Assembly (NCBI GenBank): GCA_964460305.1 | Contig: CAYWRA010000003.1 | Location: 1-60,600, forward strand | Direction of reading: 5' to 3' | Length of the DNA: 60,600 nucleotides | Source: an uncultured bacterium | GTDB lineage: Bacteria; Auribacterota; Tritonobacteria; UBA1439 | Part shown: piece by piece, positions 5,359 through 44,986 of the stretch | Layout of the letters: every line of letters starts with the position of its first letter | Numbering within the stretch: the stretch's first letter is position 1 | Translations under genes and position numbers: made by a program | The notes under the pieces: model-generated | Seen by the model: only the letters and a program-made list of their open reading frames with translations | What the model was told of the DNA's origin: nothing | Databases searched by the model: none

Positions 5359-5408
5359 ATCAATAGACCTACCCTGCGAGTACGTCACATAAAAGCTATC
5401 GAGCTATC
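5306..5408. repeat. 103-bp perfect direct repeat, copy 2
   Basis: Identical to 3549-3651. Confidence 0.95.
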
Positions 5409-18243: not shown

Positions 18244-19362
18244 TTATACACCGTTCAGCGCCACGAAAGTCTGCCCGACGCAGATACCCAGATCGTTCAG
18301 CGGGACGTCCCTGCTCTCAAGCAGGGTAAATCCCCCCTCCCTCAACAACCTCGACACGTTCTCGTAAAGGAGCCTATTCTGGAAAACGCCGCCGCTTAAG
18401 ACTATCGTATCGAGCCCGAGCTCGCTTTGGAGCCGGCGCGCTATCTCCACAACGAGCCTTGCAATAGAATTGTGGAACTTGCGCGCAATTCGCTCCGGAG
18501 GCACCTGCGCCGCCATATCACAGACCAGCCCATCAAGCATCTCTCCGAAACCGATGACGTAAACGTCCTTACCCTGGATATCAAAATCATAACTCCCGCT
18601 CTCCTCCGTCTGCGAAGCCCTTTCCTCCAATTTGATCGCGGCTTCCGCCTCATAGCCGGCCACCTGGACAAACCCAAGGAGGGAGGATACGGCGTCGAAG
18701 AGCCTGCCGCAGCTCGAAGTGAGGGGGACGTTTATACCTTTGTCGATTGCGCGCTTCAAAAATTCGAGTTCCTGCTTCGTTTTTCCCCTTAGAAAATCAA
18801 ATCGCATCTCGAATATCTCGTCTCCCAGATGCTCGTACATCATGCCGAAGATCATCCTCCACGGCTCTCTGACCGCCGCTTCCCCTCCGGGCATTTTCAT
18901 GTACTCGAAATGGGCGCGCCTGGAAAAACCGGTGCGGGAAACAACCAGGAACTCACCTCCCCATAAATTTCCGTCCGTCCCATACCCCGTGCCGTCAAAA
19001 CTGACGCCGATAACCGGTCTCTCGAGCTCGAACTGGGCCATAACGCTAGCGACATGGGCATGGTGGTGCTGCACGCCCATCCGTGAAACGCCGTCGAACA
19101 TATGCATGGGCCGTGAGGAGAGATACATCGGATGCAGGTCGTGCGCGACGAGTTTGGGAAAAATGCGCGCATTCGCCGTCATCTCCTCGACCGAGCGGAG
19201 GAATCGCGCATAGCTGTCGGGATTCGAGAGATCGCCATTTTCTCCAGAATAATGCAGCCGTCCCCCCTCGAAGAGGGAGAACCTGTTTTTTACGTCCGCC
19301 CCGCAGGCGAAGACAGGGCATCCCTTGTCGATCAAGCCCTTGAGTTTTATGCCGTGTGCCAT
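18244..19362 (-). CDS. hypF: Short HypF: C-terminal carbamoyltransferase (Kae1-like) part only
   Basis: AHDLHPMYLS, VQHHHAH, FDGTGYGTDGNLWGGEF, TSSCGRLFDAV, LSGGVFQN and PLNDLGICVGQ. No acylphosphatase, Zn-finger or YrdC domain; the ATG at 19362 has its own GGAG RBS. Confidence 0.8.
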   Translation of the reverse strand: MAHGIKLKGLIDKGCPVFACGADVKNRFSLFEGGRLHYSGENGDLSNPDSYARFLRSVEEMTANARIFPKLVAHDLHPMYLSSRPMHMFDGVSRMGVQHHHAHVASVMAQFELERPVIGVSFDGTGYGTDGNLWGGEFLVVSRTGFSRRAHFEYMKMPGGEAAVREPWRMIFGMMYEHLGDEIFEMRFDFLRGKTKQELEFLKRAIDKGINVPLTSSCGRLFDAVSSLLGFVQVAGYEAEAAIKLEERASQTEESGSYDFDIQGKDVYVIGFGEMLDGLVCDMAAQVPPERIARKFHNSIARLVVEIARRLQSELGLDTIVLSGGVFQNRLLYENVSRLLREGGFTLLESRDVPLNDLGICVGQTFVALNGV

Positions 19363-19419
19363 ATTGCCGCTCTCCTGTGAGACCACAATATCAATTATAA
19401 CCACTATGGTAGTTTTTCA

Positions 19420-20900: not shown

Positions 20901-21833
20901 CTACTTCCCCAACAACAGCGCCATGATACCCTTCTGCACGTGGAGGCGATTCTCGGCCTGGTCGAAGATGATGGAGCCGGGGCCGTCGAGCACTTCATCC
21001 GTCGCCTCCTCTCCACGGTGGGCCGGGAGGCAATGCATCACCTTCGCACCCTTCTTCGCCTTTGTCATGAGGCGCTCATTGAGCTGGAACGGGGCAAATA
21101 TCTTTAGCCGCTTCTCCCTCTCCTGCTCCTGGCCCATGCTTGCCCAGACGTCGGTATAGATGATGTCGGCGCCGCTGACCGCCTTTGACGGGTCGCGCTC
21201 GATGGCGATCTTCGCCCCCTCCTTCTTCGAAGCGGCCCAGATCTCTCTATTTGGTTCGTAACCCGAGGGGGGACATATCGTGAAGGAGAAGTCGAGCTTC
21301 GCGGCGGTTTCGACCCAGGAATTAGCGACGTTGTTGCCGTCCCCGAGAAAAACGATCCTGACACCTTTCATCTTCGGCTTTGCGGGATCGAGCTTTAGGC
21401 GCTCCGCGATCGTGTAGATGTCGCCTAGGATCTGGCACGGATGACTCAGGTCGGTCAGGCCGTTTATCACGGGGATCGACGCATGGGCCGCAAGGTCGAC
21501 CACGTCCTGGTGCTTGAAGGTGCGGATCATGATACCGTTCAGGTATCGGGAGAGCGTTTTGGCCGTGTCCGAGATCGTCTCGCCTCGGCCGAGCTGGAGG
21601 TCGCCGGCCCCGAGATAGAGCGCGTGCCCGCCGAGCTGGAACATCCCCACCTCGAACGAGACGCGGGTGCGGGTCGACGGCTTATGGAAGATCATGCCGA
21701 GCGTTTTTCCCGCGAGCACCGGTGTCGGCTTCCCCTTCTTGAGCGCGTTCTTCAGGCGCTTCGTCTCGGCGAAGATTTCGAATATCTCGGCGCGCGATAG
21801 ATCGGATATGTTGATCAGGTCCTTGCTCTTCAT
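20901..21833 (-). CDS. argF: Ornithine carbamoyltransferase (canonical)
   Basis: STRTR, HPCQ, GDGNNVANS, the ornithine-binding DVWASMG motif, and HCLPAHRGEE. Confidence 0.93.
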   Translation of the reverse strand: MKSKDLINISDLSRAEIFEIFAETKRLKNALKKGKPTPVLAGKTLGMIFHKPSTRTRVSFEVGMFQLGGHALYLGAGDLQLGRGETISDTAKTLSRYLNGIMIRTFKHQDVVDLAAHASIPVINGLTDLSHPCQILGDIYTIAERLKLDPAKPKMKGVRIVFLGDGNNVANSWVETAAKLDFSFTICPPSGYEPNREIWAASKKEGAKIAIERDPSKAVSGADIIYTDVWASMGQEQEREKRLKIFAPFQLNERLMTKAKKGAKVMHCLPAHRGEEATDEVLDGPGSIIFDQAENRLHVQKGIMALLLGK

Positions 21834-21891
21834 CTACTCCTCCGGAAAAATCCCAAATCCCAAATCCCAAATCCCAAACCCTAATGTCGTA

Positions 21892-23130
21892 TTACTCAAT
21901 CCCCGCGGTGGCGATCGCCTTTTTCAGGCTGTCAAGCTCCGGCTCGATGGAGATGGTTTGACCGGCTATCTTCATGGCGGTATCGACATCTTTAAGTCCG
22001 TTCCCGGTGATCAGGCATACAACCCTCTCCGATCCCGAGAGCTTCCCGTCGGCGATGAGTTTCTTCAACCCCGCAACGCTTGTCGCCCCCGCCGGCTCCG
22101 CAAATATCCCGGACGTGCGGGCGAGCAGCGGTATCGCGTCCAGGATCTCCTGGTCGCTCACCGTTATCGCCATACCCTTCGACTCTTTCACCGCGCGCAC
22201 CGCCATGTCGCCGTCCCTCGGGAGATCGACGGATATGCTGTCGGCGACCGTCGTGGCCTTGACCGGATGGATCACGCCGTCTCCGTTCACCGCGTTCGCC
22301 ACGGCGTTGCTCTTATCGGACTGCACCGCCACAAGCGCCGGCAGGCTATGGATCAGTCCCACACCGTGCAGGTCTTTGAAGCCCTTCCATATACCGCTGA
22401 TGATGTTGCCGTCGCCGACGGGCACAAGCACGAGATCGGGGACCTCCCAGTTCAACTGCTCGCATATCTCGAAGGAGCAACTCTTCTTCCCCTCGCGCGT
22501 ATAGGGATTGTAACCGGTGTTCCGGTTGTACCAGCCGTATTCCGCTGTCGCCTCGAGGCACAGATCGAATGCGTCATCGTACGACCCCTTCACGGCGAAC
22601 ACCTTCGCGCCGAAGATGAGGAGCTGGGCGATCTTCGCCTTCGGGGCGGTCTCGGGGACGAAAATGATCGGGCTCAGGCCGATGCTTGCGCAGAGACACG
22701 CGGTCGATGACGCGGCATTGCCGGTTGAGGCGCCGCATATCTTGTCGAAGCCGAGCTCCACCGCTTTCGCCACCGCGACGGAGCTCGCCCGGTCCTTGAA
22801 AGACGCGCTCGGGTTTCTCCCGTCATCCTTGAGGAGGATCTTTGGCATCCCCAGGAGATGGCCAAGCGCCTCGGCGCGATAGAGCGGGCTCCACCCTATC
22901 GAGAGAGGCATGATCGTGGAATAGTCTTCCAGTGGATAGAGATCCCAGTAACGCCAGACGGAGAAATCGGTGTTCTCCGCCAGGGTCTCGCGCGTGAGCT
23001 TCTTGCGGATGGCGCCGTAGTCGTAGACGACGTCGAGGTTTTTCCCACAGCGGTCGCACACGTAGCGCATGCCGCGCGGCTCAAACTCCCGGCCGCAGCC
23101 GGTACATTTCAATCCGAGGACGTTGTGCAT
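21892..23130 (-). CDS. thrC: Threonine synthase-family PLP enzyme (fold type II)
   Basis: N-terminal CxxC Zn ribbon, NPSASFKDR (PLP Lys), ASTGNAA, PVGDGNII, EPAGA and TGNGLKD. The true substrate is uncertain. Confidence 0.75.
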   Translation of the reverse strand: MHNVLGLKCTGCGREFEPRGMRYVCDRCGKNLDVVYDYGAIRKKLTRETLAENTDFSVWRYWDLYPLEDYSTIMPLSIGWSPLYRAEALGHLLGMPKILLKDDGRNPSASFKDRASSVAVAKAVELGFDKICGASTGNAASSTACLCASIGLSPIIFVPETAPKAKIAQLLIFGAKVFAVKGSYDDAFDLCLEATAEYGWYNRNTGYNPYTREGKKSCSFEICEQLNWEVPDLVLVPVGDGNIISGIWKGFKDLHGVGLIHSLPALVAVQSDKSNAVANAVNGDGVIHPVKATTVADSISVDLPRDGDMAVRAVKESKGMAITVSDQEILDAIPLLARTSGIFAEPAGATSVAGLKKLIADGKLSGSERVVCLITGNGLKDVDTAMKIAGQTISIEPELDSLKKAIATAGIE

Positions 23131-23143
23131 TGGTCTTCGCCCG

Positions 23144-24115
23144 TTATTCCTTCACCGGGTCCGGAACGATCCGCGTTCCCGCTTTCCCGATGAGGGCGTC
23201 GACCGCTTTGTCCAGACTGGTGATGATGGCGCACTCGCCGCCCCATTCGACAAACCGGATGCAGGCCAGCACTTTCGGCCCCATGCTCCCCGCTTTGAAA
23301 TGCCCCTCCTTGTAGAGCTTTTTCATTTCTGAGAGAGTGACGTTTCTTACCGGCTTTTCCTGAGGGGTCCCGAAGTTGATCCGCGCGGCATCCACGTCCG
23401 TGAGGACGAGGAAAATGTCGGCGCCGACGACCTCAGCGAGGCGCTCCCCCGCCTTGTCCTTGTCAATGACGGCCGCGGTCCCCCGAAGGTTGTCGTTTTT
23501 ATCGTACACCACCGGCACGCCGCCGCCGCCAGAGGCGATGACGACGATCCCCGAATCCACCATCCGCCGTACGGCGACGTACTCCATGTTCCTGATCGGG
23601 TCGGGAGAAGCCACGACGCGCCGAAACCGTTTCGCGACGCTCTTCGGCTTGACCTCCTTGATCACGTAGTCAGGCCGCTCCTTCTTTATCCGGGCGGCTT
23701 CTTCCTCGGTATAGAACGGGCCCACGGGCTTTGTCGGGTCCTGATAGTCCGGATCGTCCTCGCTCACGAGCACCTGGTTCACGATGGATACCACGGGGAG
23801 CGGGAGCTTCTCCTTCCAGAGCATGTTCTGCATCGTCTGCTGGAACATGTAGCCGATCTGCCCCTGCGTCATCGCCCCTACTATGTCAAGCGGCTGCGCT
23901 GGCACCTCGTCGGTAGCGGCCTCCTGCTGGAGGAGCAAGTTCCCCGCCTGCGGGCCGTTGCCGTGGGTGATCACGAGCCTGTGTCCGAACTTCAACATGC
24001 TCACAAGCTGGGCTGAGGTGATCTCGACGTTCCTGAACTGTTCTTCGGCCGTGCCCTTCTCGTCGGCCTGCTTGATCGCGTTGCCTCCCAACGCCACCAC
24101 AATCACTTTTCTCAT
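23144..24115 (-). CDS. arcC: Carbamate kinase
   Basis: VVALGGNAI, THGNGPQAG, PTKPVGPFY, RRVVASP, GGGGVPV, AVIDKD, GSMGPKV. Confidence 0.95.
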   Translation of the reverse strand: MRKVIVVALGGNAIKQADEKGTAEEQFRNVEITSAQLVSMLKFGHRLVITHGNGPQAGNLLLQQEAATDEVPAQPLDIVGAMTQGQIGYMFQQTMQNMLWKEKLPLPVVSIVNQVLVSEDDPDYQDPTKPVGPFYTEEEAARIKKERPDYVIKEVKPKSVAKRFRRVVASPDPIRNMEYVAVRRMVDSGIVVIASGGGGVPVVYDKNDNLRGTAAVIDKDKAGERLAEVVGADIFLVLTDVDAARINFGTPQEKPVRNVTLSEMKKLYKEGHFKAGSMGPKVLACIRFVEWGGECAIITSLDKAVDALIGKAGTRIVPDPVKE

Positions 24116-24182
24116 CGTGAACCTACCTCCTTATTGGAAATCCCAAGGGAAAAATCCCAAACCCCAAATCCCAATATCAGCG

Positions 24183-24461
24183 TCATCCCCCGCGTGGGGG
24201 GCGCGTGCCGGAACCGCCGGACTTTCTCTTCTGTATGCGAGCGGAGATCGCCCAACTGCCGCACACAAGGACGATGGTTGCCACCACAAAACTCAGAATC
24301 TGAACCGACACTCTGAATCGGTACACCGCCTCCACCAACGCGATAACGGCCGCGAGCCCGAGATAGAACAGATATGAACCCATTTTCATCCATGCGCCCA
24401 ACATCAATAGCGCCGTCAGGATGCTCCAAACGAGCCAGTGCTGCACCATACATGGATCCAT
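24183..24461 (-). CDS. Small membrane protein resembling the NfeD/YbbJ N-terminal TM region
   Basis: Three hydrophobic segments (WLVWSILTALLMLG, YLFYLGLAAVIA, QILSFVVATIVLV) and a basic tail; GGGA RBS. Confidence 0.5.
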   Translation of the reverse strand: MDPCMVQHWLVWSILTALLMLGAWMKMGSYLFYLGLAAVIALVEAVYRFRVSVQILSFVVATIVLVCGSWAISARIQKRKSGGSGTRPPRGG

Positions 24462-24551
24462 ATCGGTTTCCCCGGACGCGGCGAAAACAGCCAAAAGCTG
24501 AAAGTGTAAAGATCAGCGCTCTTACTTCACGAGAGGTCAGTTTCGGTAGGG

Positions 24552-24601
24552 TCTCCCCCCTCCCAAATCCTCCCCCTTTGAAGGAGGAGGATTTGGCGGG
24601 G
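24552..24601. repeat. GC-rich palindrome (CCTCCCCCTTTGAAGGAGGAGG type)
   Basis: ccaaatcctccccctttgaaggaggaggatttgg hairpin. Confidence 0.65.
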
Positions 24602-24654
24602 GTGATTACCACAACAACCGTCCCATCCTCCACTTCAAGCTTTCGACTTTAAAC

Positions 24655-25677
24655 TTACGGCCGTAGCTTGGCCATTGTGAGCGCCATGATCGCCTTCTGG
24701 ACGTGCAGGCGGTTCTCAGCGACGTCGTAGATGATCGAGCGCGGCCCGCTTGCGACCTCGTCGGTCACTTCGTGACCGCGGTCGATCGGCATCGGGTGGG
24801 TGAACAGCGCGTTGTTGCTGAGCTTCATCTTTGCAGCGTCACAGATCCACTCCGTGTACTTCAGCGCCTTTTCGATCTCGCCGGCCTTGTTGAACTCGCC
24901 CGAGTCGTAGGCGTGGGGGGTCATCCAGTTGCGGGAATACACAACGTCGGCTCCCTTGTAGCCTTCGCGCGGGTCATGGGTGACGTTAAACTTCGCCTTG
25001 TTATCGGCACAGTTCTTTTTTACCTGCTCGATCACCGCTGGATCGAGGTCGTACCCATCGGGGTGAGCGAGCGTAACGTCCATGCCGAGACGGGAACAGA
25101 TGAGGATGCTTTCCTGGACCGAGCACCATGACCGGGCGAGCGCCCCGTGACCCCATACCTGAAGCAGCTTCTTTCCCTTCAGGTTCTTGCCGATGTGCTT
25201 CCTGAGCCCCATGACGTCCGCAAGCCCCTGGCAGGGATGAAATTTGTCGTGCGCCATACTGATGATCGGGATGTCGGACCATTTGGCGTACTCGCGGAGC
25301 AGCTCGTCACCCTCACCGTACCTGCTCACCTTGTCCTCGAGTATCCGTATACCGAGGCCGCATGCGTAGCGGCTCATCACCTTCGCCGCATCCTCAACCG
25401 TCTCGCCTGCGGTCGTCGCGGTCTTCAGCCTCATCGACTTGGGCTCGAGGAACTGCGCGTGGCCGCCCAGCTCCGTCGCGGCGCACTCGAAACTCTGGCG
25501 CGTGCGGACCGACGGGTTGTAGAAAAACATGAAGAACGTTTTGTTCAGCAAAAGCTTCGTATATTTCTTGTCATAGCGCTTCTTGCGCATCTGCTCGGCC
25601 AATTCAAGGACCTTGATCAGCTCCTTTACCGACCATTCCTGCGTGCACACCAGATCTCTTCCCGTTAAATCTGCCAT
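24655..25677 (-). CDS. Atypical transcarbamylase (AOTCase/YgeW-like subfamily), paralog 2
   Basis: NPSVRTRQSFE, HPCQ and AENRLHVQKA are present. There is no DxxxSMG motif, and HPMP replaces HCLP. Confidence 0.85.
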   Translation of the reverse strand: MADLTGRDLVCTQEWSVKELIKVLELAEQMRKKRYDKKYTKLLLNKTFFMFFYNPSVRTRQSFECAATELGGHAQFLEPKSMRLKTATTAGETVEDAAKVMSRYACGLGIRILEDKVSRYGEGDELLREYAKWSDIPIISMAHDKFHPCQGLADVMGLRKHIGKNLKGKKLLQVWGHGALARSWCSVQESILICSRLGMDVTLAHPDGYDLDPAVIEQVKKNCADNKAKFNVTHDPREGYKGADVVYSRNWMTPHAYDSGEFNKAGEIEKALKYTEWICDAAKMKLSNNALFTHPMPIDRGHEVTDEVASGPRSIIYDVAENRLHVQKAIMALTMAKLRP

Positions 25678-25811
25678 GTGTCTTTCACCTCTCCTCTCTG
25701 AATTATGGTTGATTGGCGCCCGTCCGCCCACGGCCCACAAAGCACAGGTGGTAAGCACATCCGCTTACCACCTGTCGCTCTTTCGGGAACTCTACTCTAT
25801 CACTGCCGCTC

Positions 25812-26807
25812 TCACATCGTCAACGCCATAATGGCCTTCTGGACGTGCAGGCGGTTTTCCGCCTCGTCATTCACGATGGAGATATTCGGATCGTCGATGA
25901 GATCATCGGTCACTTCCTTACCGCGCTTCGCGGGCAGGCAGTGCATGTAGACGGCCCGCGGATTGGCCGCCTTGAAATGCTTGTGGGAAATGCACCAATC
26001 CTTTGCGTACTTCGGCCCCTTCTCGGCGTGGACGTCCGGCTTACGGGCCCAGCTCTTACAGTAGATCACGTCGGCGCCCTTGCAGGCCTTCCATATATCA
26101 TGCTCCACCGTGATTTTCCCGCCGGATGCCTTTGCGGCGTCCTGGGCGAACTTCAAGTACTCGGGGTCTATGTCGTAACAGCCCGCCTCGTCCGGGTAGG
26201 CCAGGACGATGTTCATTCCAAGGATGCCGCCGGCCACGACCATGGTCTGCGGCACTCCCGCCGACTTGTCCCTATCGTCCCACGCCCATCCCATGACGAC
26301 CTTTTTCTCCTTATACTCCTGGCCGAACTTCTCTCTCATCGTCATTATATCGGCCATGATCTGGCAGGGGTGCTCTTTGTCGTCGAGCATGTTGAGAACC
26401 GGGATGCCCGCATCCTTTGCGATGGCGCAGAGCACTTCCCTGGCGTCGCCGTAGTCGTACTTCTCGGCGCCCATCTGGGCCTTCAAATTGTAGAGCCGGA
26501 TGGCAAAACCGTCAATGAACCGGCTGATCATCTCGGCCGTGTCTTTCCACGACTCTTTGTTTTTGAGCTGGAGCTGCTCGGGGCTGTAGTATTGAGCATG
26601 CCCGCCGAGCTGCGTCATACCCGTTTCAAACGAGATGCGCGTCCTGGTAGAAGGCGACGCGAAAAGCATTCCAAGCGTTTTCCCCTTGAGGAGTTCGTGC
26701 GTTTCGCCGATAGCCCACTTCATCTTGAGATACTGGGCCACCTCGAAAATGCTCTCGAGTTCCTCCAGGTTGTAATCCATTATGCTGATGAAATCCTTAC
26801 CCCTCAT
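25812..26807 (-). CDS. Atypical transcarbamylase (YgeW/AOTCase-like subfamily), paralog 1
   Basis: SPSTRTRISFE, HPCQ, WAWDDRDKSAGVPQ (compare YgeW WAYSPSYGKPLSVPQ), YCKSW and HCLPAKRG; no SMG motif. Confidence 0.85.
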   Translation of the reverse strand: MRGKDFISIMDYNLEELESIFEVAQYLKMKWAIGETHELLKGKTLGMLFASPSTRTRISFETGMTQLGGHAQYYSPEQLQLKNKESWKDTAEMISRFIDGFAIRLYNLKAQMGAEKYDYGDAREVLCAIAKDAGIPVLNMLDDKEHPCQIMADIMTMREKFGQEYKEKKVVMGWAWDDRDKSAGVPQTMVVAGGILGMNIVLAYPDEAGCYDIDPEYLKFAQDAAKASGGKITVEHDIWKACKGADVIYCKSWARKPDVHAEKGPKYAKDWCISHKHFKAANPRAVYMHCLPAKRGKEVTDDLIDDPNISIVNDEAENRLHVQKAIMALTM

Positions 26808-26902
26808 CCTTCTGGTAATCACCGCACCAACCTCCTTTCTCAGAGTGTGCCAGACACCCTCATTCTGCAACACATCCGCTCTCAATACTATAATAGCTGG
26901 GA

Positions 26903-27009
26903 AGTTTACGTGATACCGGGCCAGCCTGTCAATCAAAAATCAATGACACCAAAAATCAATGACAATTCACGCGAAAACTTTTGACTTACCCCTCTTCATT
27001 TGTTAGCGT
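26903..27009. promoter_or_regulatory. Back-to-back sigma70-like promoters separated by a tandem 15-bp direct repeat
   Basis: Minus strand: TTGACA-N18-TAAACT (26932 to 26903). Plus strand: TTGACT-N17-TAGCGT with an extended TG (26981-27009). CAAAAATCAATGACA occurs at 26934-26948 and 26950-26964. Confidence 0.55.
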
Positions 27010-27077
27010 AATCCCCTTTATGCCACAATTGTCGGCGGCGCGAGGATGCCCGCAAACCACACATACGGAGGAGCGAC

Positions 27078-28553
27078 ATGATCGATCTGCGGATTGACAA
27101 AAAGAAGCTTGAAAAAGCGGTGCGGCAGTGCAAGGAGCGCAATGTCATCATCCCGACGTTCAAGGAGCAGCGGGACCCCGATTCCATACCGGCCAAAATA
27201 AAGCAGCGCCTGAAAAAGATCGGCCTATGGGATTTCGATTCCACCAACCTCTTTAGAATCACCTGGAAAAACGAGCCTGTCCCGAAAGGCGGCCTCTTCG
27301 ACGGCGTGAACTACCTCGAACTCCCCAGAGAGATCACCGGCACCAACGCCAGGATCATCTGCCTCACGGGCAAATGGTTTCCCACGGGCGCGCATAAGGT
27401 AGGGGCCAGCTTTGGCTGCCTCGTCCCCAGGCTCGTCACCGGCCAGTTCGACCCCACTTCGCAGAAGGCGGTCTGGCCGTCAACGGGCAACTACTGCCGA
27501 GGCGGGGCGTACGACTCCCACCTGCTCGGTTGCGAGTCCATCGCCATCCTCCCCGAGGAGATGAGCAAGGAGCGGTTCGAATGGCTGAAGCAGGTCGCGG
27601 GCGAAGTCATCGCCACTCCCGGTTGCGAATCGAACGTGAAGGAGATCTACGACAAGTGCTGGGAGCTCAGGAAGACCCGCAAGGACGACATCGTTATCTT
27701 CAACCAGTTCGACGAGATGGGAAACCACCTCTGGCACTACGAGATCACCGGCCATGCAATGGAAGAGGTGCTCAAAAAAGAGATGAAGAAGGGCGACCGG
27801 TACGCGGGCGTCGTCCTTACGACCGGTTCCGCTGGCACAATCGGATGCGGCGATTACATGAAGAAAATATTCCCGACCAGCAAGATCGCCGCGGGCGAGG
27901 CCTGGCAGTGCCCGACGCTCCTTCTCAACGGTTTCGGCGGACACCGGATCGAGGGGATCGGCGACAAACACGTCCCGTGGATCCATAACGTGCGCAACAC
28001 AGACTTGGTGATAGACGCGGATGACGAGAACTGCATGAACATCATCCGGCTCTTCAACGAGCCCGTGGGGAGGAAATACCTCCAGAAGCAGGGCGTCTCC
28101 AGAGAGCTGACCGACAAGCTCGGCCTCATCGGCATCTCCGGCGTGGGAAACATCCTCTGCTCCATCAAGTTCGCCAAGTGGTACGAGCTGACTGAGAGGG
28201 ACATCGTCCTCACGGTACTCACCGACTCGATGGAGCTCTACGGCAGCCGCATCAAAGAGCTAAAGGCGCAGTTCGGCGAGTACAAGGAACTGGACGCCGC
28301 GAGGGATTACCACCGCTATCTTATGGCGCTCAAAACCGACAGGATGCTTGAGCTATCGTTCCAGGACCGGAAGAGGGTCCACAACCTCAAGTACTACACC
28401 TGGATCGAGCAGCAGGGGCGCGAGCTTAGCGAGCTAAACGAGCAGTGGTACAGGTTCCCCGCATACTGGGAAGAGGTCCATAACCAGGTCGGCCAGATCG
28501 ACGAGCTCATCAACGAGTTCAACGATCGGACCGGTTTGTTGAAGAATCTCTGA
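27078..28553 (+). CDS. PLP-dependent enzyme, fold type II (cysteine synthase / Trp synthase beta superfamily), uncharacterised ~490-aa subfamily
   Basis: FPTGAHKVGA (Schiff-base Lys), PSTGNYCRGGA, TTGSAGTIG, HRIEGIGD; GGAGGAG RBS. Confidence 0.85.
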   Translation: MIDLRIDKKKLEKAVRQCKERNVIIPTFKEQRDPDSIPAKIKQRLKKIGLWDFDSTNLFRITWKNEPVPKGGLFDGVNYLELPREITGTNARIICLTGKWFPTGAHKVGASFGCLVPRLVTGQFDPTSQKAVWPSTGNYCRGGAYDSHLLGCESIAILPEEMSKERFEWLKQVAGEVIATPGCESNVKEIYDKCWELRKTRKDDIVIFNQFDEMGNHLWHYEITGHAMEEVLKKEMKKGDRYAGVVLTTGSAGTIGCGDYMKKIFPTSKIAAGEAWQCPTLLLNGFGGHRIEGIGDKHVPWIHNVRNTDLVIDADDENCMNIIRLFNEPVGRKYLQKQGVSRELTDKLGLIGISGVGNILCSIKFAKWYELTERDIVLTVLTDSMELYGSRIKELKAQFGEYKELDAARDYHRYLMALKTDRMLELSFQDRKRVHNLKYYTWIEQQGRELSELNEQWYRFPAYWEEVHNQVGQIDELINEFNDRTGLLKNL

Positions 28554-28610: not shown

Positions 28611-28819
28611 GCTACCTTCCCGAGACTGATACGGGCCGTTTTTTTGTTCCTCTTTCTCTCTTTTACTCTTTGTGAAAGTGTTACTATTCTTTCCTCCGTG
28701 TTCTGCCACCCTTGGCCCCCCGGCAATTGCACATGATCCGCGATGATGCTATCATTACTCCGTGGGAGGGTGAAGATTAACACGTCGGCGACGACGGTCA
28801 CCGGACGGTGGAAACCGAA

Positions 28820-29764
28820 ATGAGCCAGCGCTTCGACCTTGGCATCGCGTGGGAATGGGAGCACGACCATGCTTTCATCTCCGCCATGGAGCTGGCGTGC
28901 CAGCGGCGCCGGGTCTCGTACCGTATCGTCGATCCCGCAAACCTCGCGGACGTCGAAAACTCAGCGTCCGCCGGCGAGATCTCCTTCGGCGTCTTTTTCG
29001 ACAGGGCGTCGGACACGCGCAAGGAATTCTCTCCGCTCGTCAACCGCCTCATACAGCAGCACGTCCCCTTTGTAAACAACCCCCGTGATGCCGAAATCGC
29101 CGGCAATAAGGCCGCGATGCACCTCGAGTTCATCACCCACGGGATAAACGTTCCCTATACGATCATTCTCCCCCTTTTCGATGAAAGCGGCCCCACCGAG
29201 AACATCCTGAAGCTCGAAAACGTCGGCATCCCTTTCATCATAAAGCCGGCCCACGGCGGCGGCGGAGATGGCGTGCTCCTCGGCGCAAAATCCCTCGTGG
29301 AGGTGATGGCGGCCTGGAAGGATTATGCCCATGACCAGCTACTCATACAGGAGAACATCGTTCCCCGCAGCCTGGACGGGAGACAGGCCTACTTTCGGGT
29401 CTATTACGCGGGGGGGGGCGTCATTTCCTGCTGGTGGGACCCCAAGCACCACGTTTCCGAAAGGCTCTTGCCCGAGGATTCGGCGCGGTACGGGCTCCAG
29501 GAGATCGACCGGATCGCCCGCAAGATCCACGAAATCTCGAGATTGAACTTCTTTTCGACGGAGATCGCCCTCACGGAGGCGATGAAATTCATATCGGTGG
29601 ATTACGTCAATGAACCGTGCGACATGCGGCTGAAATCAAACGCGTGGGACGGCGTACCGGATGAAGTGGTGGAGCTTGTTTGCGATTCTCTGGTGGAGTT
29701 TGCGGGTCGGGAGATTGGGCGGGGGGAAGCACCAATAAATCCCAAATCCTCCGCCGAAGGCTGA
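28820..29764 (+). CDS. ATP-grasp domain protein of unknown function
   Basis: NKAAMH, PFIIKPAHGGGGDGV, LLIQENI, FFSTEIAL and DYVNEPCD match the ATP-grasp K/G-loop/E-x-N layout. Confidence 0.7.
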   Translation: MSQRFDLGIAWEWEHDHAFISAMELACQRRRVSYRIVDPANLADVENSASAGEISFGVFFDRASDTRKEFSPLVNRLIQQHVPFVNNPRDAEIAGNKAAMHLEFITHGINVPYTIILPLFDESGPTENILKLENVGIPFIIKPAHGGGGDGVLLGAKSLVEVMAAWKDYAHDQLLIQENIVPRSLDGRQAYFRVYYAGGGVISCWWDPKHHVSERLLPEDSARYGLQEIDRIARKIHEISRLNFFSTEIALTEAMKFISVDYVNEPCDMRLKSNAWDGVPDEVVELVCDSLVEFAGREIGRGEAPINPKSSAEG

Positions 29765-29853: not shown

Positions 29854-31110
29854 TCAGTGCACCGAGCAGGAGAAGCAGGGATCGTAGGCCCTAAGCAACT
29901 GTTCGCACATGAGCCGTATCTCATCCCTGCTCCTGTGAACGTTTTCGTCCACCAACTGTTTCAAATCCTTCTCGATGTTGAGGAAATTGTGCGACGTGGG
30001 GGTCACGAGGTTGGCCTTTTCGACGATCCCCTTCCCATCGATCCTGTACCAGTGATAAAGAAGCCCGCGTGGGGCTTCCGTGATGGCCCCACCCTCGCCC
30101 GACCTGACCTTCACGTGTCTCTTCTCATCCTCAAATGAATGCGACTCCAGCAACCGTATGCATCTCAGCACCCCGTCGTACAGCTCCAGCGCCTGGGCCA
30201 GGTTGTTGTAATAAGGATTATCACAAGGGGTCGAAAAGCCGATCTTCTTAGCAAGCGCCTTCGTCTCGTCCTGGAGATCGTCGGACTTAAGATTTGTCCT
30301 GGCAAGAGCGCCCACCATGAACGGACCGCGCGCCCGTATCACCGACTGCTTTGCCATCGCGTAGGGCACCTGGGATTCCTTAAAATGCCGCTCGTATTCG
30401 TCGACGGAAATATCCAGCCCCTTGGTCGATACGATCCTTCCCTCGTTGAACGTATACTCACCACTCCCCTGCAGCGCCACGTACTCGGAAGCGGGATGAA
30501 AATCGGCCGCCTGGAACTGCGCGACGACCTCCAACACCCTCTCCGCATCGGGCAATATCTCCTTGAGTTTCACGATGGCCGCCCGGCGATCCGCGTCATC
30601 GGGGATGCAGGTGAACCCACCCGGCATATGGGTGACCGGATGCAACGCCCTTCCGCCGATGAGCGACGTCAGGCCGTTCATCACCTCTTTCATTTTCAAC
30701 AGACGGTCGATCTCTCCCTTGAATTGGGGGAGCATGTCAACGACCCCGCTGCATCCATAGTAATCCGGCATGGCGAGCATGTAGAGGTGTATCAGGTGGC
30801 TTGCGACGACCTGGCTCAAGGTCATTACGTTTCGCATGACCTTCGTCTGGGGGCTCACCTCGATGCCCATCGCCTTTTCAATGGCGAGGATCGCCGTGGT
30901 CATGTGCGAGACGGGGCATATGCCGCATATCCTCGAAACGATATCGCCGACCTCGTCGTACCTCCTTCCAACCAGCATCCCCTCAAAAAATCGCGGAGGC
31001 TCGAAGATCTTGAGCTCGATGGGGGTCCCCTTCTTCAACTCTATCCTGATGGCAGTCTCACCCTCGACCCTCGCGAGGTAATCTATGTCGATATGCTCCT
31101 TGTGGCTCAT
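29854..31110 (-). CDS. hydA: [NiFe]-hydrogenase large (alpha) subunit, group 3b-type
   Basis: ARVEGE, L1 SRICGICPVSH, EAPRGLLYH, L2 RAYDPCFSCSVH followed directly by the stop codon. Confidence 0.95.
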   Translation of the reverse strand: MSHKEHIDIDYLARVEGETAIRIELKKGTPIELKIFEPPRFFEGMLVGRRYDEVGDIVSRICGICPVSHMTTAILAIEKAMGIEVSPQTKVMRNVMTLSQVVASHLIHLYMLAMPDYYGCSGVVDMLPQFKGEIDRLLKMKEVMNGLTSLIGGRALHPVTHMPGGFTCIPDDADRRAAIVKLKEILPDAERVLEVVAQFQAADFHPASEYVALQGSGEYTFNEGRIVSTKGLDISVDEYERHFKESQVPYAMAKQSVIRARGPFMVGALARTNLKSDDLQDETKALAKKIGFSTPCDNPYYNNLAQALELYDGVLRCIRLLESHSFEDEKRHVKVRSGEGGAITEAPRGLLYHWYRIDGKGIVEKANLVTPTSHNFLNIEKDLKQLVDENVHRSRDEIRLMCEQLLRAYDPCFSCSVH

Positions 31111-31209
31111 GGCTTCTCCCCTGAAAAATCCCAAATCCCAATATTAATGTATAACCACAGAGGACACGGAGAAGTAATCACTGAGGACACAGAGATTTAC
31201 TACAGCAAC

Positions 31210-31345
31210 AACAGTTTCTCGTTTCCGGTTTCTGGAACAAGAAATAATCTGTATTTATCCGTGTTCAACCGTGGTAAAAAATAATCTGAGGTTTATTTCT
31301 CTGTGCTCTCAGTGGCCTCCCCCGAAGGGGACCCTTTGGGATGTG
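31210..31345. repeat. Composite repeat element homologous to 2560-2706, inside the hydrogenase operon
   Basis: Shared ~43-bp block plus an aatctg..ctctgtg module and a CCCGAAGGGGACCCTTTGGG palindrome. Confidence 0.7.
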
Positions 31346-31348
31346 GTT

Positions 31349-32230
31349 TTAATGTGCCCGTTTAGCGGCCCCGTTGGGGCTGAGGTTAAACTCCTCCGCC
31401 GGCTCGCCGAATTCCGTGAATTTTCTGAAGACGTCTTCCCTGCTCAAACCCATCTCCTTGAACCGAACCGCCAATGCCTTGGCATTCGCGTCCTGCATCG
31501 GTCCCCAGCACGAATAACATGGGCGTTCCCTGGACGGGCAGAGCGCGCCGCAGCCCGCGGCCGTGACGGGCCCCATGCATGGCTCGCCGTACGCCGTCAA
31601 TACGCAGATCGTCCCCTTGAGTTTGCATTCGACACAAACGCAGTACTCGAGAAAATCGGGTCGCTTGCCAAGCAACAACGAGGTGACAAGCTCCGCCAGG
31701 TCCCTCTCCCCCATCGGGCAGCCCCGCACCGCTCCATCCACCTCCACGAGTTGCGAAATGGGCCTTGCTATGCCTGAGTGGATGACGGACCTGTCCGAGT
31801 AGACCCTCTTTTCCACGTCCGATTCCATCGACGTATTTTTGATCGCCGGTATACCGCCGCAAACGGCGCAGGAGCCGATGGCGATCAGGCACCGGCTCGC
31901 CTTGCGCACCCTTTTCAACTGGGCCGCCTGCCATTCCTCGGTAATCGCCCCTTCGACCAACGCGACGTCGAACGGCCCCTCCTCCGCTCCCCCCGATTGC
32001 AACATCCTGCAATAGACGATCTCCACCGCCCCCAGGGTTTCCAGGATATGCTTCTGGAAATAGATCAACTGAAACTCGCACCCGGCGCAGCAACTGTACT
32101 TGAATATGCCGATCTTGGGCTTTTTCCCCATTGGGATTTGGGGTTTGTCCGCCAGCGGCGGATCAGCCTTGGGCGGAGAATTTGGGATTTTCCCTTGGGA
32201 TTTGGGATTTGGGATTTGGGATTTTTTCAT
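31349..32230 (-). CDS. hydD: [NiFe]-hydrogenase small (delta) subunit; N-terminus extended by a repeat-encoded peptide
   Basis: KYSCCAGCEFQ, VEGAIT, AIGSCAVCGG, GCP, CVCVECK, CMGPVTAAGCGALCPS. The ATG at 32230 is coupled (ATGA) to the gamma stop; an alternative ATG lies at 32131. Confidence 0.9.
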   Translation of the reverse strand: MKKSQIPNPKSQGKIPNSPPKADPPLADKPQIPMGKKPKIGIFKYSCCAGCEFQLIYFQKHILETLGAVEIVYCRMLQSGGAEEGPFDVALVEGAITEEWQAAQLKRVRKASRCLIAIGSCAVCGGIPAIKNTSMESDVEKRVYSDRSVIHSGIARPISQLVEVDGAVRGCPMGERDLAELVTSLLLGKRPDFLEYCVCVECKLKGTICVLTAYGEPCMGPVTAAGCGALCPSRERPCYSCWGPMQDANAKALAVRFKEMGLSREDVFRKFTEFGEPAEEFNLSPNGAAKRAH

Positions 32231-33066
32231 AACAGCGTATCCACAAACCTCTTTATATCGCCGTATGGAAACACAGGCCCATCCTTGCAAACGTATTTAG
32301 CGCCTATCTGGCAATGCCCGCAGTGGCCGATACCGCACTTCATCCGCCTCTCCAGCGAGACGAAGATATCGCAGGGCCTCTGCCCTTTCAAGAGGATCTG
32401 CCGGGCGACGAAACGCATCATGATCTCCGGCCCGCAGGTGAAGGTGACCGAATCCTGCAGGGGCGCATCGATCAGGTCGAAAAGGGTCGTCACTACGCCC
32501 ACGTGCAACCCGGCTTGCGCTTTCGGCGGCGCTTCATCGACCGATAGGCGCACGGCTACATCATGCACGCTCCCCCATTTTTTGAGCTCTTTACCGTACA
32601 GGATGTCGCCCACGGTCCGGGCACCGTAAAGCAGGAATACCCGCCCGAATTTCTTCCTGTCCCGAACGACGTGATAAATCACCGGCCGGAGCGGCGCCAT
32701 GCCGATACCGCCCGCAACGATGACGAGATTTTTGCCGTACGCCTTCTCCACGGGCCAGCCGTTGCCGAAGGGGCCGCGGAGCTGCACCAGATCGCCGACG
32801 CGCCGGTTACAAATCTCCCGTGTCACGTTCCCCACCAGCCGTATGGTGTGAACGAACTCCCCCCCATCGGTAATGAGAGAGCTGAAGGAGATCGGCGCCT
32901 CGCCGAAGCCGGGCAGTCCCAGCATGTTGAATTGACCCGCATGAAACGAATAGTTCTCCCCATCCGCAAGGGCCAATGTCAATGAAACCGTATCCGGGTT
33001 CTCAAGAACCCTCTTCTTTACGACCGCAGCGCGCGGCATGAGGGAATTCTTTGCTTGCGCTTTCAT
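32227..33066 (-). CDS. hydG: Hydrogenase gamma subunit (FAD/NAD(P)-binding, 2Fe-2S)
   Basis: GQFNML, GEAPISFSS, RGPFGNGWP, AGGIGMAPLR, CGPEIMM, ERRMKCGIGHCGHC, CKDGPVF. Confidence 0.92.
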   Translation of the reverse strand: MKAQAKNSLMPRAAVVKKRVLENPDTVSLTLALADGENYSFHAGQFNMLGLPGFGEAPISFSSLITDGGEFVHTIRLVGNVTREICNRRVGDLVQLRGPFGNGWPVEKAYGKNLVIVAGGIGMAPLRPVIYHVVRDRKKFGRVFLLYGARTVGDILYGKELKKWGSVHDVAVRLSVDEAPPKAQAGLHVGVVTTLFDLIDAPLQDSVTFTCGPEIMMRFVARQILLKGQRPCDIFVSLERRMKCGIGHCGHCQIGAKYVCKDGPVFPYGDIKRFVDTLL

Positions 33067-34130
33067 CTCGCCCGCCCCCGTTGATCGTCTTCCCGTATTT
33101 CTCCGGCCATCTCGGCAAGGTCGATTCCGGTGGGGCACCACGTCATGCACCGGCCGCATCCGACGCATCCGAAACATCCATACTGCTCAACCCATGTGCA
33201 GAGTTTGTGGGTCACGAACTGCCTCAGGCGCGCCTCGCGCGAGGAACGGAAGTTCCCACCGTGCACCTTCGCGAAATTCAACGTCTGGCACGAATCCCAC
33301 TGCCGCTTCCTGACGGAGCGTTTGAGATCGAAAGACGTCTCATCGCCGATGTTATAGCAGAAACAGGTCGGGCACACCATCGTGCAATTGGCGCATCCCA
33401 GGCATTTCTGCTCGGCCGTCCGCCGATAGACGGCGTGATCGAGATTCCCCGCTAGGAGATCGACCAGGCCGTCCGTATCCAGGCGCTTCACGAACGAGCG
33501 GCCAGCCTCGGCCTCTCTTCCAACCTTCTCCGCCAACGCTTCCTTATCCGCTTTCCTCATGCGCCTGCCGCGCTCGACAAGCCCTCTACCGCGCTGAGAT
33601 CCGCACTCCACGAGGTAAATAGTGTCTCCGCCATCGGGATGCAGCCGCGTCAGCTCGACGTCATACCCCTCGCGTAATTTCAGAAAAGGCCCAGTCCCCA
33701 TCGATGCGCAAAAGCCCTTCTCGCACGCCCGGCCGCAATTCAACACAATCGTAACGGTGTCTCTCCGCATTTTTTCATAATGAGGATCGCGGTAATCGCC
33801 GAGCAAGACCTTATCCAACACGGAGATCGCATGCATGTCGCACGGATGGACCGCGAAAAGAAGGGGATGGGCCGCATCGCCGGCTGACGCAGGTACGCAT
33901 TGATTCGGATCCCGTCCCATCTCCAGAAGCGTCCGGCAGGAAGGATAGATGAACCGGCGGGGAGCGAGCATCGTGGAACGGTATTCCAGGAAGAGCCGGT
34001 CGGTGCTGTCAACCTTCTCAAAAACCGTCTGCCCCCGCTTGGTAAGCACGGGCCCGATGACGGTGAATTCCCCCATCAGATCCGCGCACCAGCTCATCAA
34101 CTCGCGCGCGGAGACAACGTACCCGGTCAT
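33063..34130 (-). CDS. hydB: Hydrogenase beta subunit (AsrA-like 4Fe-4S)
   Basis: VHPCD, CGRACEKGFC, CLGCANCTMVCPTCFC, CVGCGRCMTWCPTGI; GGAGGAG RBS. Confidence 0.92.
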   Translation of the reverse strand: MTGYVVSARELMSWCADLMGEFTVIGPVLTKRGQTVFEKVDSTDRLFLEYRSTMLAPRRFIYPSCRTLLEMGRDPNQCVPASAGDAAHPLLFAVHPCDMHAISVLDKVLLGDYRDPHYEKMRRDTVTIVLNCGRACEKGFCASMGTGPFLKLREGYDVELTRLHPDGGDTIYLVECGSQRGRGLVERGRRMRKADKEALAEKVGREAEAGRSFVKRLDTDGLVDLLAGNLDHAVYRRTAEQKCLGCANCTMVCPTCFCYNIGDETSFDLKRSVRKRQWDSCQTLNFAKVHGGNFRSSREARLRQFVTHKLCTWVEQYGCFGCVGCGRCMTWCPTGIDLAEMAGEIREDDQRGRAR

Positions 34131-42237: not shown

Positions 42238-42611
42238 GATTGCACTTTTTACTTCCACAAAGAGTAAAAGTTAACCTGGCCTACTCACTAACCACCGATG
42301 CCATACTCCAACTTTCAACGTTCTTATCCACGTCCCAACGGGATCCCTTCGGGACGTGGATTCCAACAGTTCTCTCGATTTCTCTTTCCCTCTTTTACTC
42401 TTTGTAAAACAACTGCCTTGTTTTCTCTGCGTACTCTGCGGTGAGCTATTAACCTGATCTATTCATCAACTTTGATCGGCCGATAAATACTTACTGTAGC
42501 GTAAATAGTTATGCAAAACTGCCAACATTCCGCACCAGACTAGTCGGTGCGGGGTTAACCCCGTAGGGTGGATTATTCATCTCACATTTCAAACGAGATG
42601 AATAATCCGGA

Positions 42612-44711: not shown

Positions 44712-44986
44712 AAACCTGATCCATTTACCAACCGCCGCAGGAAAATCCCCCGCCTGCCAACCGGCCTCGTCCCAAAGGGATCCCTTGGGGCGGGCAAGCA
44801 AACCCTTTGCAAAATCCCAACTCCCAAACCCCAAATCCCAAAGTATGAGACGGAGAAACGGGGAAGGGGCGACATAAAGAAATCGCCGGCGATCCCCCGA
44901 AGGGGCCCCTTTGGGGCGTGGATTCCAGCGGTTTTCTTGGTCTCTCTTTTCCTCTTTTACTCTTTGTAAAACAACTGCTCCGCGGT

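Follow-up and report, generated by a model that had tools for sequence, protein, structure and literature searches.

Within a 60,600-nucleotide stretch of contig CAYWRA010000003.1 (GenBank assembly GCA_964460305.1; the whole stretch is referred to here as the window) from an uncultured member of the Auribacterota lies a compact cluster of transcarbamylase, carbamate kinase and pyridoxal phosphate (PLP) enzyme genes. Six of its seven genes occupy the minus strand and, read in the direction of transcription, encode the atypical transcarbamylases TC2 (open reading frame (ORF) 25812-26936) and TC1 (ORF 24655-25758, probable start 25677), both identified by their OTCace_N and OTCace domains, a small membrane protein recognized from its translation in the ORF list (103 aa, 24183-24494), a carbamate kinase equivalent to ArcC/YqeA (23144-24115; TIGR00746, arcC), a ThrC-like fold-type II PLP enzyme (21892-23130; PALP, PRK08197) and a canonical ornithine carbamoyltransferase, ArgF (20901-21833; NCBIfam). 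The seventh gene, on the plus strand and divergent from the other six, encodes PLP491, a 491-aa PALP protein (27078-28553). All seven are intact ORFs at the positions given by the first-pass annotation of this DNA, and their family scores bear out its description of co-oriented transcarbamylase, membrane protein, carbamate kinase, thrC-like and ArgF genes opposite a PLP enzyme of ~490 aa. Within the minus-strand set, neighboring genes are separated by only 13-160 bp, and argF is succeeded by terminator-like hairpins at 20783-20768 and 20722-20700, which together fit a single operon. The rest of the window is devoted to housekeeping, regulatory, envelope and hydrogenase functions. The first-pass annotation had held that the window lacks any arginine deiminase, agmatine deiminase or amidohydrolase. 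The first half of this claim stands, as neither an arginine deiminase nor an agmatine deiminase is found in the 60.6-kb window, whereas the second requires amendment: an Amidohydro_1 protein is encoded beside GlmS (50665-51834) and a GatA-type amidase at 57386-58846, both distant from and unrelated to the cluster.

Judged by curated cutoffs, neither TC1 nor TC2 is an N-acetylornithine (AOTCase), ornithine (OTCase), putrescine (PTCase) or aspartate (ATCase) transcarbamylase, nor is either a YgeW. TC1 (340 aa, with complete OTCace_N and OTCace domains in Pfam) falls below every NCBIfam transcarbamylase cutoff, scoring 246.3 bits vs 288 for AOTCase (NF003384), 212 and 224 vs 280.85 and 306 for OTCase (TIGR00658 and NF001986) and a mere 123 and 128 vs 500 and 453 for YgeW (TIGR03316 and NF005538). 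It is 31% identical to YgeW, 36% to AOTCase and 22% to PyrB. Its AlphaFold2 (AF2) model, moderately confident at a pLDDT of 78, most resembles AOTCase (TM 0.83-0.85, 35% identity), and the solved structures nearest to it are AOTCase and the OTCase of P. furiosus. The protein carries the motifs SVRTR, WGHGALARSW, YSRNW and HPMPIDRGHEVTD together with an ATCase-like HPxP motif (HPMPID), and its substrate loops hold several conserved basic residues, which would be consistent with an anionic ureido acid as substrate. Homologs of TC1 share 72-92% identity and are spread over more than 10 phyla, including Auribacterota, Elusimicrobiota, Caldisericota, Chloroflexota, Eremiobacterota/Vulcanimicrobiota, Cloacimonadota, WOR-3, Marinimicrobia and ‘Deltaproteobacteria’, among others. 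The closest matches (88%) come from metagenome-assembled genomes of Auribacterota, and TC1 relatives were confirmed at 393 places in a scan of GTDB in which each species was represented by a single genome.

TC2 is ~336 aa long, its probable start being either a GTG at 26822, located 8 nt past AGGAGG, or an ATG at 26807, and it likewise has complete OTCace_N and OTCace domains (Pfam). Its best NCBIfam scores are those of OTCase (TIGR00658 and NF001986, 268.7 and 268.8 vs 280.85 and 306), which are below cutoff, and it lacks the SMG motif; it reaches 238 vs 500 for PTCase, 225.9 vs 288 for AOTCase and 125 and 133 vs 500 and 453 for YgeW (TIGR03316 and NF005538). TC2 nonetheless retains the KSW, MHCLPA and VPQ segments of the YgeW type, although its loop, WAYDDRAKSAGVPQ, is unlike WAYSPSxxKPxSVPQ. 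Orthologs occupy the matching position in 12 loci at 63-94% identity. When 193 transcarbamylases from the related loci described below were aligned and clustered with E. coli YgeW, ArgI and PyrB and Xanthomonas AOTCase, the groups obtained included TC1 (90 sequences), TC3 (54), TC4 (14, 37% identical to YgeW), TC2 (12, the type found in the window), the operon ArgF (11) and an ATCase-like type (5). The YgeW segments WAYSPSxxKPxSVPQ, YPKSW and MHCLPAD are common to TC3 and TC4 and are found in part in TC2. Conversely, the extended 240s loop, 120s insertion and extra terminal helices of YgeW (~396 aa) are absent from TC1 and TC2 in the alignment, and its insertions and terminal helices are missing from TC3 and TC4 as well. 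On these motifs, TC3, TC4 and in part TC2 may be regarded as “mini-YgeW” enzymes. The ATCase-like transcarbamylases, which are 37% identical to E. coli PyrB and have an HSLP motif, occur in purine-type clusters (L091, L098, L106, L126 and L147) and recall ureidoglycine transcarbamylase, which has been described as a “pseudo-ATCase”.

The two PLP enzymes differ in how closely they resemble characterized families. The ThrC-like protein has a CxxC...CxxC zinc ribbon at its N-terminus and matches PALP, NF006050 (PRK08197; 314.6 vs 303, a marginal result) and TIGR00260 (212.9 vs 167.1), whereas PLP491 matches PALP with 41.9 bits and reaches the cutoff of neither CysK TIGR01139 (81.9 vs 351) nor CBS TIGR01137 (55.8 vs 510). 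PLP491 has a PTGAHK lysine motif and a GSAGT phosphate loop, and its AF2 model (pLDDT 86.6) shows a CysK/CBS-type core flanked at each end by helical regions of ~100 extra residues; its best PDB matches are CysK and CBS proteins at 20-25% identity (TMt 0.70-0.78). The family is 64-91% identical across phyla. Among 1.8 billion representatives, its full-length members make up no more than a few clusters at 50% identity, and more than 594 metagenome contigs carry the protein. ThrC-like orthologs, which are 39-83% identical to the protein of the window, reside beside TC1 and carbamate kinase, PLP491, xanthine dehydrogenase (XDH), SsnA, YgfK and YgeY. Among loci with enough upstream flank, PLP491 directly follows a ThrC-like ortholog (39-77% identity) in 25 of 55. 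No DpaL model appears among the 9 NCBIfam matches of PLP491 or in the top 25 of 43 for the ThrC-like protein, and the latter aligns with E. coli YgeX at 24% identity over just 234 aa (60 bits).

The remaining members of the operon are more readily classified. The carbamate kinase scores 412 bits vs 358.25 on TIGR00746 (arcC) over residues 4-317 of 323 and is thereby a member of that family. Elsewhere, TC1 is followed by a divergent and longer carbamate kinase-like protein (360-369 aa; L002, L003, L014, L017, L023, L024, L027, L032, L073, L170 and L172), which is 34-36% identical to the kinase of the window, scores 249 bits vs 358 on arcC and may constitute its own subfamily. ArgF carries the SMG and HCLP motifs, scores 430.7 vs 306 on NF001986 and 400.7 vs 280.85 on TIGR00658, and is the terminal gene of the operon, a position it keeps in 10 loci from three clades. 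As for the small membrane protein, the first-pass annotation was right that one exists; the gene is the 103-aa ORF and not a longer, 173-aa ORF in another frame (24112-24633), whose translation is not hydrophobic and matches no family. The protein has three hydrophobic segments and a probable start at 24461 (MDP), yielding ~92 aa. It has no Pfam match and seems clade-specific, being kept at 54-60% identity in the same position in L005, L006, L007, L008, L022 and L089.

To place the cluster in a broader context, neighborhoods were compared in ~170 related loci spanning more than 10 phyla (designated by L numbers), collected with three seeds, namely TC1, PLP491 and the ThrC-like protein. Neighboring ORFs were clustered and the recurrent families annotated, two of which (families 3 and 7) were antisense artefacts of longest-ORF calling and were ignored. 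The proteins of the window were then mapped on 80 TC1 loci, the counts including only loci with enough flank. In 55 of 71 loci, a carbamate kinase gene follows TC1 at a distance of no more than 2.5 kb, and in 48 of 73 another transcarbamylase gene precedes it by 3 kb or less; a ThrC-like gene follows in 26 of 58, and PLP491 occurs within 8 kb in 8 of 38. The entire order of the window, including the membrane protein and the divergent PLP gene, is repeated in its nearest relatives (L005, L007, L008, L022 and L089). It is evident that the gene arrangement is not a product of chance, as the same order recurs across phyla.

It is the company kept by these families in other genomes that points to their function. 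Certain loci seeded with TC1 combine the module with genes of purine catabolism: L017 encodes SsnA (559 bits vs 444), PLP491, YgeY, TC3, TC1, carbamate kinase and the ThrC-like protein; L011 encodes YgeY (M20 family, 417 vs 321), TC3, TC1, carbamate kinase, the ThrC-like protein and ArgF; L049 encodes XDH, SsnA, TC3, TC1, carbamate kinase, PLP491 and the ThrC-like protein; and L043, L061 and L066 share the order SsnA, HEAT, HEAT, SsnA, YgeY, an unnamed gene, TC3, TC1, carbamate kinase, ThrC-like and ArgF. For PLP491, the neighbors comprise the Mo, FAD and FeS subunits of XDH, SsnA, an 8-oxoguanine-deaminase-like hydrolase and YgfK on the one hand and dihydropyrimidinase/hydantoinase- or allantoinase-like enzymes, M20/M55 peptidases, transcarbamylases and carbamate kinase on the other. 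Thus, L086 encodes TC3, an allantoinase-like enzyme, TC1, carbamate kinase, the ThrC-like protein, an M20 peptidase, PLP491, XDH, an 8-oxoguanine-deaminase-like protein and SsnA (595 bits), and L087 encodes YgfK (986 vs 835), the ThrC-like protein, an M55 peptidase and PLP491. Among 80 metagenome loci with PLP491, a ThrC-like gene was found in 33, a transcarbamylase in 27, a cyclic amidohydrolase in 19, carbamate kinase in 18, XDH in 15 and an M20 gene in 13. The ThrC-like contexts that were sampled had purine genes in their company in 3 of 3 cases. The first-pass annotation had suggested inspecting the surroundings of the PLP491 family for such genes, and ssnA, ygeY, xdh and hydantoinase genes, and also ygfK, do adjoin PLP491 or ThrC-like genes in many phyla.

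Two further loci are especially informative regarding the PLP enzymes. L172 encodes a true YgeW (664 and 708 vs 500 and 453 on TIGR03316 and NF005538), YgeY (523 bits), a carbamate kinase-like protein and an amidohydrolase, and it has the ThrC-like protein and PLP479, a PLP491 homolog of 57% identity, in the place where ygeX would be expected. L170 combines YgeY, a mini-YgeW transcarbamylase, a carbamate kinase-like protein, the ThrC-like protein, PLP488, a reductase and SsnA. A DpaL/YgeX ortholog was found in none of the 167 loci L001-L167, the best result being a 60-bit partial match onto the ThrC-like protein, and this search did not extend to L170-L172. Related operons may encode YgfK or PreA-like reductases. 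A few additional features of these neighborhoods were also encountered. Pairs of HEAT-repeat proteins lie between two SsnA paralogs in L043 and L061, and a HEAT_2 protein is encoded upstream of the transcarbamylases in L004. The glycosyltransferase genes that adjoin YgeY in certain Chloroflexota loci seem to form a separate, unrelated operon. A Peptidase_M55 gene of the D-aminopeptidase family, in place of an M20 gene, separates the ThrC-like gene from that of PLP491 in L087, L094, L104 and L106, which hints at D-configured intermediates.

The genes listed above are those of the reductive (2,8-dioxopurine) urate pathway, which was published in 2025 for E. coli and Clostridium sporogenes (Liu et al., bioRxiv 10.1101/2025.04.24.650524; Li et al., PMC12507026). 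In this pathway, urate is reduced to 2,8-dioxopurine by XdhD or XdhAC, the purine ring is dearomatized by YgfK (UacX in C. difficile), and SsnA and HyuA open the rings to yield 2,3-diureidopropionate. YgeW then phosphorolyses one ureido group, the resulting carbamoyl phosphate being converted to ATP via YqeA, YgeY hydrolyses the other ureido group, and YgeX converts 2,3-diaminopropionate to pyruvate and ammonia (10.1101/2025.04.24.650524; PMC12507026). The two groups disagree over which ureido group is attacked by YgeW, and the stereochemistry is also unsettled; Li et al. give albizziin as the YgeW product (PMC12507026). E. coli YgeX accepts both isomers of diaminopropionate, and in C. sporogenes the carbamate kinase is encoded elsewhere on the chromosome.

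Based upon these links, the cluster probably constitutes a module for the last, ATP-forming steps in a variant of this pathway, a reading we favor with some reserve. We infer the substrates, the ureido group assigned to each transcarbamylase, the division of labor between the PLP enzymes and the ATP yield as follows. TC2, with its YgeW-like active-site motifs, would phosphorolyse one ureido group of 2,3-diureidopropionate, and TC1 would phosphorolyse the other, a step that is hydrolytic and catalyzed by YgeY in E. coli. Each phosphorolysis would release carbamoyl phosphate, from which carbamate kinase would form ATP from ADP, so that up to 2 ATP rather than 1 might be obtained per purine. The ThrC-like protein and PLP491 would jointly replace YgeX/DpaL in converting 2,3-diaminopropionate to pyruvate and ammonia, and this removal of diaminopropionate would pull the unfavorable phosphorolyses forward. 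Conceivably, each PLP enzyme takes one enantiomer of diaminopropionate, an idea suggested by the racemization of hydantoins and by the acceptance of both isomers by E. coli YgeX. ArgF could either convert carbamoyl phosphate to citrulline or use citrulline as an additional feed for the kinase and thus as a source of ATP. On a larger scale, we tentatively envisage an energy-maximized anaerobic purine fermentation that would be widespread in uncultured phyla of sediment and groundwater, in which TC2 or TC3 together with TC1 would obtain 2 ATP per purine and the PLP pair, acting per enantiomer or sequentially, would take the place of DpaL; in lineages like that of the window, the module may stand alone on the intermediates of others. 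This broader scenario is possible, yet clearly less secure than the assignment of the module itself.

The distribution of YgeY-type hydrolases is of particular relevance to TC1. Where TC1 is present, an M20/M55 hydrolase accompanies it in 16 loci and is missing from 47, whereas loci lacking TC1, which usually have one TC4-type enzyme, encode the hydrolase in 9 cases and not in 4. This inverse pattern (Fisher p = 0.007, with similar results at other flank thresholds) derives from a small test in which loci from different seeds were mixed and phylogeny was not corrected for. Three of the four loci with neither TC1 nor hydrolase (L129, L131 and L137) have a second, TC1-like transcarbamylase, and the fourth (L100) has TC4 only. 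An inverse relationship would be expected if a second phosphorolytic enzyme stands in for the hydrolase, so the pattern is suggestive of TC1 acting in place of YgeY, with both ureido groups being phosphorolysed.

Several observations weigh against the assignment of the cluster to a purine pathway and the roles assigned to its enzymes. Firstly, ssnA, hyuA, ygfK, xdh and ygeY are all lacking from the 60.6-kb window, and a gene of the upstream pathway was found within 10 kb of TC1 in just 4 of the 38 loci whose flanks extend 6 kb or more to each side. Secondly, about a quarter of TC1 loci also have YgeY, which a simple replacement of YgeY by TC1 leaves unexplained, and the model likewise has no explanation for the need for two PLP enzymes. 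Thirdly, the ThrC-like protein passes curated threonine synthase cutoffs and may have ordinary threonine synthase activity, that role being called into doubt by its context only. Lastly, the association statistics are uncorrected for phylogeny or for differing seeds, and the support for ureido phosphorolysis coupled to PLP-dependent deamination comes from genomic context and not from biochemistry. Even so, this remains the best-supported reading given the neighborhoods, the transcarbamylase scores and the absence of DpaL from 167 loci; in this respect, the proposal of the first-pass annotation that ureido-amino acids are phosphorolysed and their products deaminated by PLP enzymes instead of DpaL, with a gain of ATP, has held up well.

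The main rival is that the organism of the window possesses the lower module only and ferments exogenous ureido compounds, such as citrulline via ArgF or carbamoyl-amino acids, albizziin and diureidopropionate leaked by its neighbors. We regard this as rather unlikely, yet it draws strength from the very absence of the upstream genes, which extends to the flanks of the closest relatives (L005, L007, L008, L022, L088 and L089), from the mostly free-standing TC1-carbamate kinase unit and from the canonical OTCase in the operon. However, the operon contains no recognizable transporter, just the membrane protein of ~92 aa. Furthermore, genes of this pathway are often dispersed, as exemplified by the carbamate kinase of C. 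sporogenes, and elsewhere the association of the PLP pair with purine clusters is a close one.

A biosynthetic function is more doubtful still. Here, carbamate kinase would serve as a carbamoyl phosphate synthase, as it does in Pyrococcus, to feed ArgF, TC1 and TC2 would be AOTCase-like enzymes of arginine or ureido-amino acid synthesis and the PLP enzymes would be ordinary synthases. The canonical nature of ArgF, the threonine synthase scores of the ThrC-like protein and the resemblance of TC1 to the AOTCase and P. furiosus OTCase structures are all in keeping with this, as is the upstream transcarbamylase of some related loci, which reaches the AOTCase cutoff (302 vs 288 in L019). TC1 and TC2 themselves fall short of that cutoff, however, and three features of AOTCase, namely the 80s Trp loop, the proline-rich loop and the HCLP...K motif, are missing from TC1. 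No other arginine, threonine or cysteine biosynthesis genes are adjacent, and the operons in which these families recur encode catabolic enzymes (XDH, SsnA, YgeY, YgfK and hydantoinase), all of which renders biosynthesis unlikely.

It is equally improbable that, with the transcarbamylases indeed acting on ureido acids derived from purines, one of the PLP enzymes eliminates urea directly from albizziin rather than using diaminopropionate, in which case a single ATP would be formed and TC1 would act on another substrate. In favor of this are established enzymology, in which enzymes of the CysK/CBS fold and the ThrC family perform beta-elimination or replacement of good beta-leaving groups, the identification of albizziin as the YgeW product by Li et al., and the occurrence of five-gene operons consisting of TC4, carbamate kinase, the ThrC-like protein, PLP491 and HyuA without an M20 gene (L121, L133, L153 and L166). 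Conversely, loci with a single transcarbamylase usually do have an M20/M55 hydrolase, the freed urea would require a urease, which was not seen in the loci, and TC1 is nearly always coupled directly to carbamate kinase. Finally, an arginine deiminase or agmatine pathway was rejected for want of a deiminase anywhere in the window, and natural product synthesis, in which diaminopropionate is carbamoylated as in viomycin or zwittermicin, was rejected given the absence of nonribosomal peptide synthetase or polyketide synthase neighbors, the constant presence of carbamate kinase and the catabolic neighborhoods.

Apart from its genes, the cluster contains several noncoding features. TC2 and PLP491 are separated by a divergent spacer of 255 bp, in which a perfect tandem direct repeat (CAAAAATCAATGACA, two copies at 16-nt spacing, 26934-26964) is a candidate operator for some regulator and overlaps a promoter-like TTGACA-18-TAAACT on the minus strand (26932-26903); in a sigma-70 scan, the number of promoter-like sites in this region was not above chance. 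No conservation of the divergent DNA was found against L022 and L008, in what was a weak test due to the loci having been aligned in the wrong relative orientation. The 160-nt spacer between TC1 and the membrane protein folds at -69.4 kcal/mol (z = -4.5 vs shuffles) and harbors a perfect 15-bp stem-loop lacking a U-tract (24563-24596, minus strand), a palindrome also flagged by weak miRNA-like Rfam matches on both strands. This may be an intra-operon element for mRNA processing or stability, and L022, whose corresponding spacer spans just ~37 bp, does not share it. Neither at gathering thresholds nor at E <= 1 did Rfam detect a riboswitch or other known RNA, such as those of the xanthine, guanine or guanidine classes, upstream of the operon, and the search otherwise returned just two tRNAs elsewhere and a hairpin.

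The wider window also contains features of potential relevance to the cluster. Immediately 3' of PLP491, a 318-aa ORF (28808-29764, plus strand) with a faint ATP-grasp/RimK similarity (38.6 bits vs 143) is kept beside the PLP gene or close to it in L088 (72%) and L022 (61%) and might be a member of the cluster. On the other side, a 386-aa protein encoded at 18244-19404 (minus strand) corresponds to only the C-terminal, Kae1-like half of HypF (TIGR00143 profile positions 387-740 of 741, 276 bits), and Group-3-like NiFe hydrogenase genes are located at 29854-33177. A gene similar to the HypF half is found ~8 kb from the transcarbamylase cluster in two Caldisericota loci (L035 and L036). Carbamoyl phosphate is consumed by HypF as a substrate, and the nearby carbamate kinase cluster could also feed hydrogenase maturation with it. 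Lastly, the window encodes four PF01663 type I phosphodiesterase/nucleotide pyrophosphatase paralogs (3664-5388, 35418-36746, 40237-42258 and 42612-45356), and their presence in a single 60-kb window would fit a nucleic acid-scavenging lifestyle.

The cluster had initially been proposed to represent an undescribed pathway, which can no longer be maintained now that the parent pathway has been published. What is new is the enzyme set, that is, two uncharacterized transcarbamylase families and an equally uncharacterized PLP pair, probably with the exchange of a hydrolase for a phosphorylase. Li et al. included Elusimicrobiota, Chloroflexota and Spirochaetota in their survey of SsnA neighborhoods and scored any PF00185 protein as “YgeW” and any PF00291 protein as “YgeX” (PMC12507026), and consequently the families described here were lumped in rather than recognized. 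No paper treating them separately was found in the literature searched, nor did a search on the Rabinowitz clostridial purine pathway return anything bearing on them. The elucidation of the reductive urate pathway dates only from 2025 and is confined to gut Proteobacteria and Clostridia. The present families are abundant and unusually conserved (65-90% identity across phyla), and at present they bear the annotations ornithine carbamoyltransferase, threonine synthase and cysteine synthase. If our reading is true, their reassignment would correct a widespread misannotation and add Elusimicrobiota, Caldisericota, Anaerolineae, Auribacterota and Caldatribacteriota, among others, to the lineages with anaerobic purine fermentation. 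It would also alter the ATP yield in models of necromass and nucleic acid fermentation, and two transcarbamylases of presumably different regiospecificity could settle the order of ureido cleavage.

When compared with known systems, the cluster combines familiar and unfamiliar elements. Like Xanthomonas AOTCase (ArgF', PDB 3kzc/3l02), TC1 has an extended 120s region, but unlike AOTCase it has no Trp-bearing 80s loop, the proline-rich loop HPKPLN is replaced by GHGALARSW and HCLP...K302 by HPMP...H, and its context is not one of arginine biosynthesis, argF being the sole adjacent arg gene. With the arginine deiminase and agmatine deiminase pathways (ArcB or PTCase plus ArcC), the cluster shares the conversion of a ureido compound and phosphate to carbamoyl phosphate and then ATP that is proposed for it, as well as a canonical OTCase in the operon; it differs from them in having no deiminase and no antiporter and in that TC1 and TC2 are neither OTCase nor PTCase by curated cutoffs. 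The closest parallels are to the lower pathway of E. coli and C. sporogenes, in which a transcarbamylase is similarly coupled to carbamate kinase and a fold-type II PLP enzyme, and in related genomes the families of the window share operons with SsnA, YgeY, YgfK, HyuA-like proteins and XDH. However, in contrast to E. coli, the window has no YgeW ortholog (its transcarbamylases being 31-37% identical, devoid of the insertions and far below cutoff), it has two transcarbamylases plus an OTCase instead of one transcarbamylase, it has the ThrC-like protein and PLP491 instead of YgeX, and YgeY is usually missing where TC1 is present. A precedent for such lineage-specific, non-orthologous fillers is provided by C. 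difficile, in which UacX substitutes for YgfK and UacY for YgeW/YqeA (PMC12507026). C. difficile thereby exchanges phosphorolysis for hydrolysis and forgoes ATP, whereas the variant described here apparently does the reverse, with a second phosphorolysis taking the place of hydrolysis.

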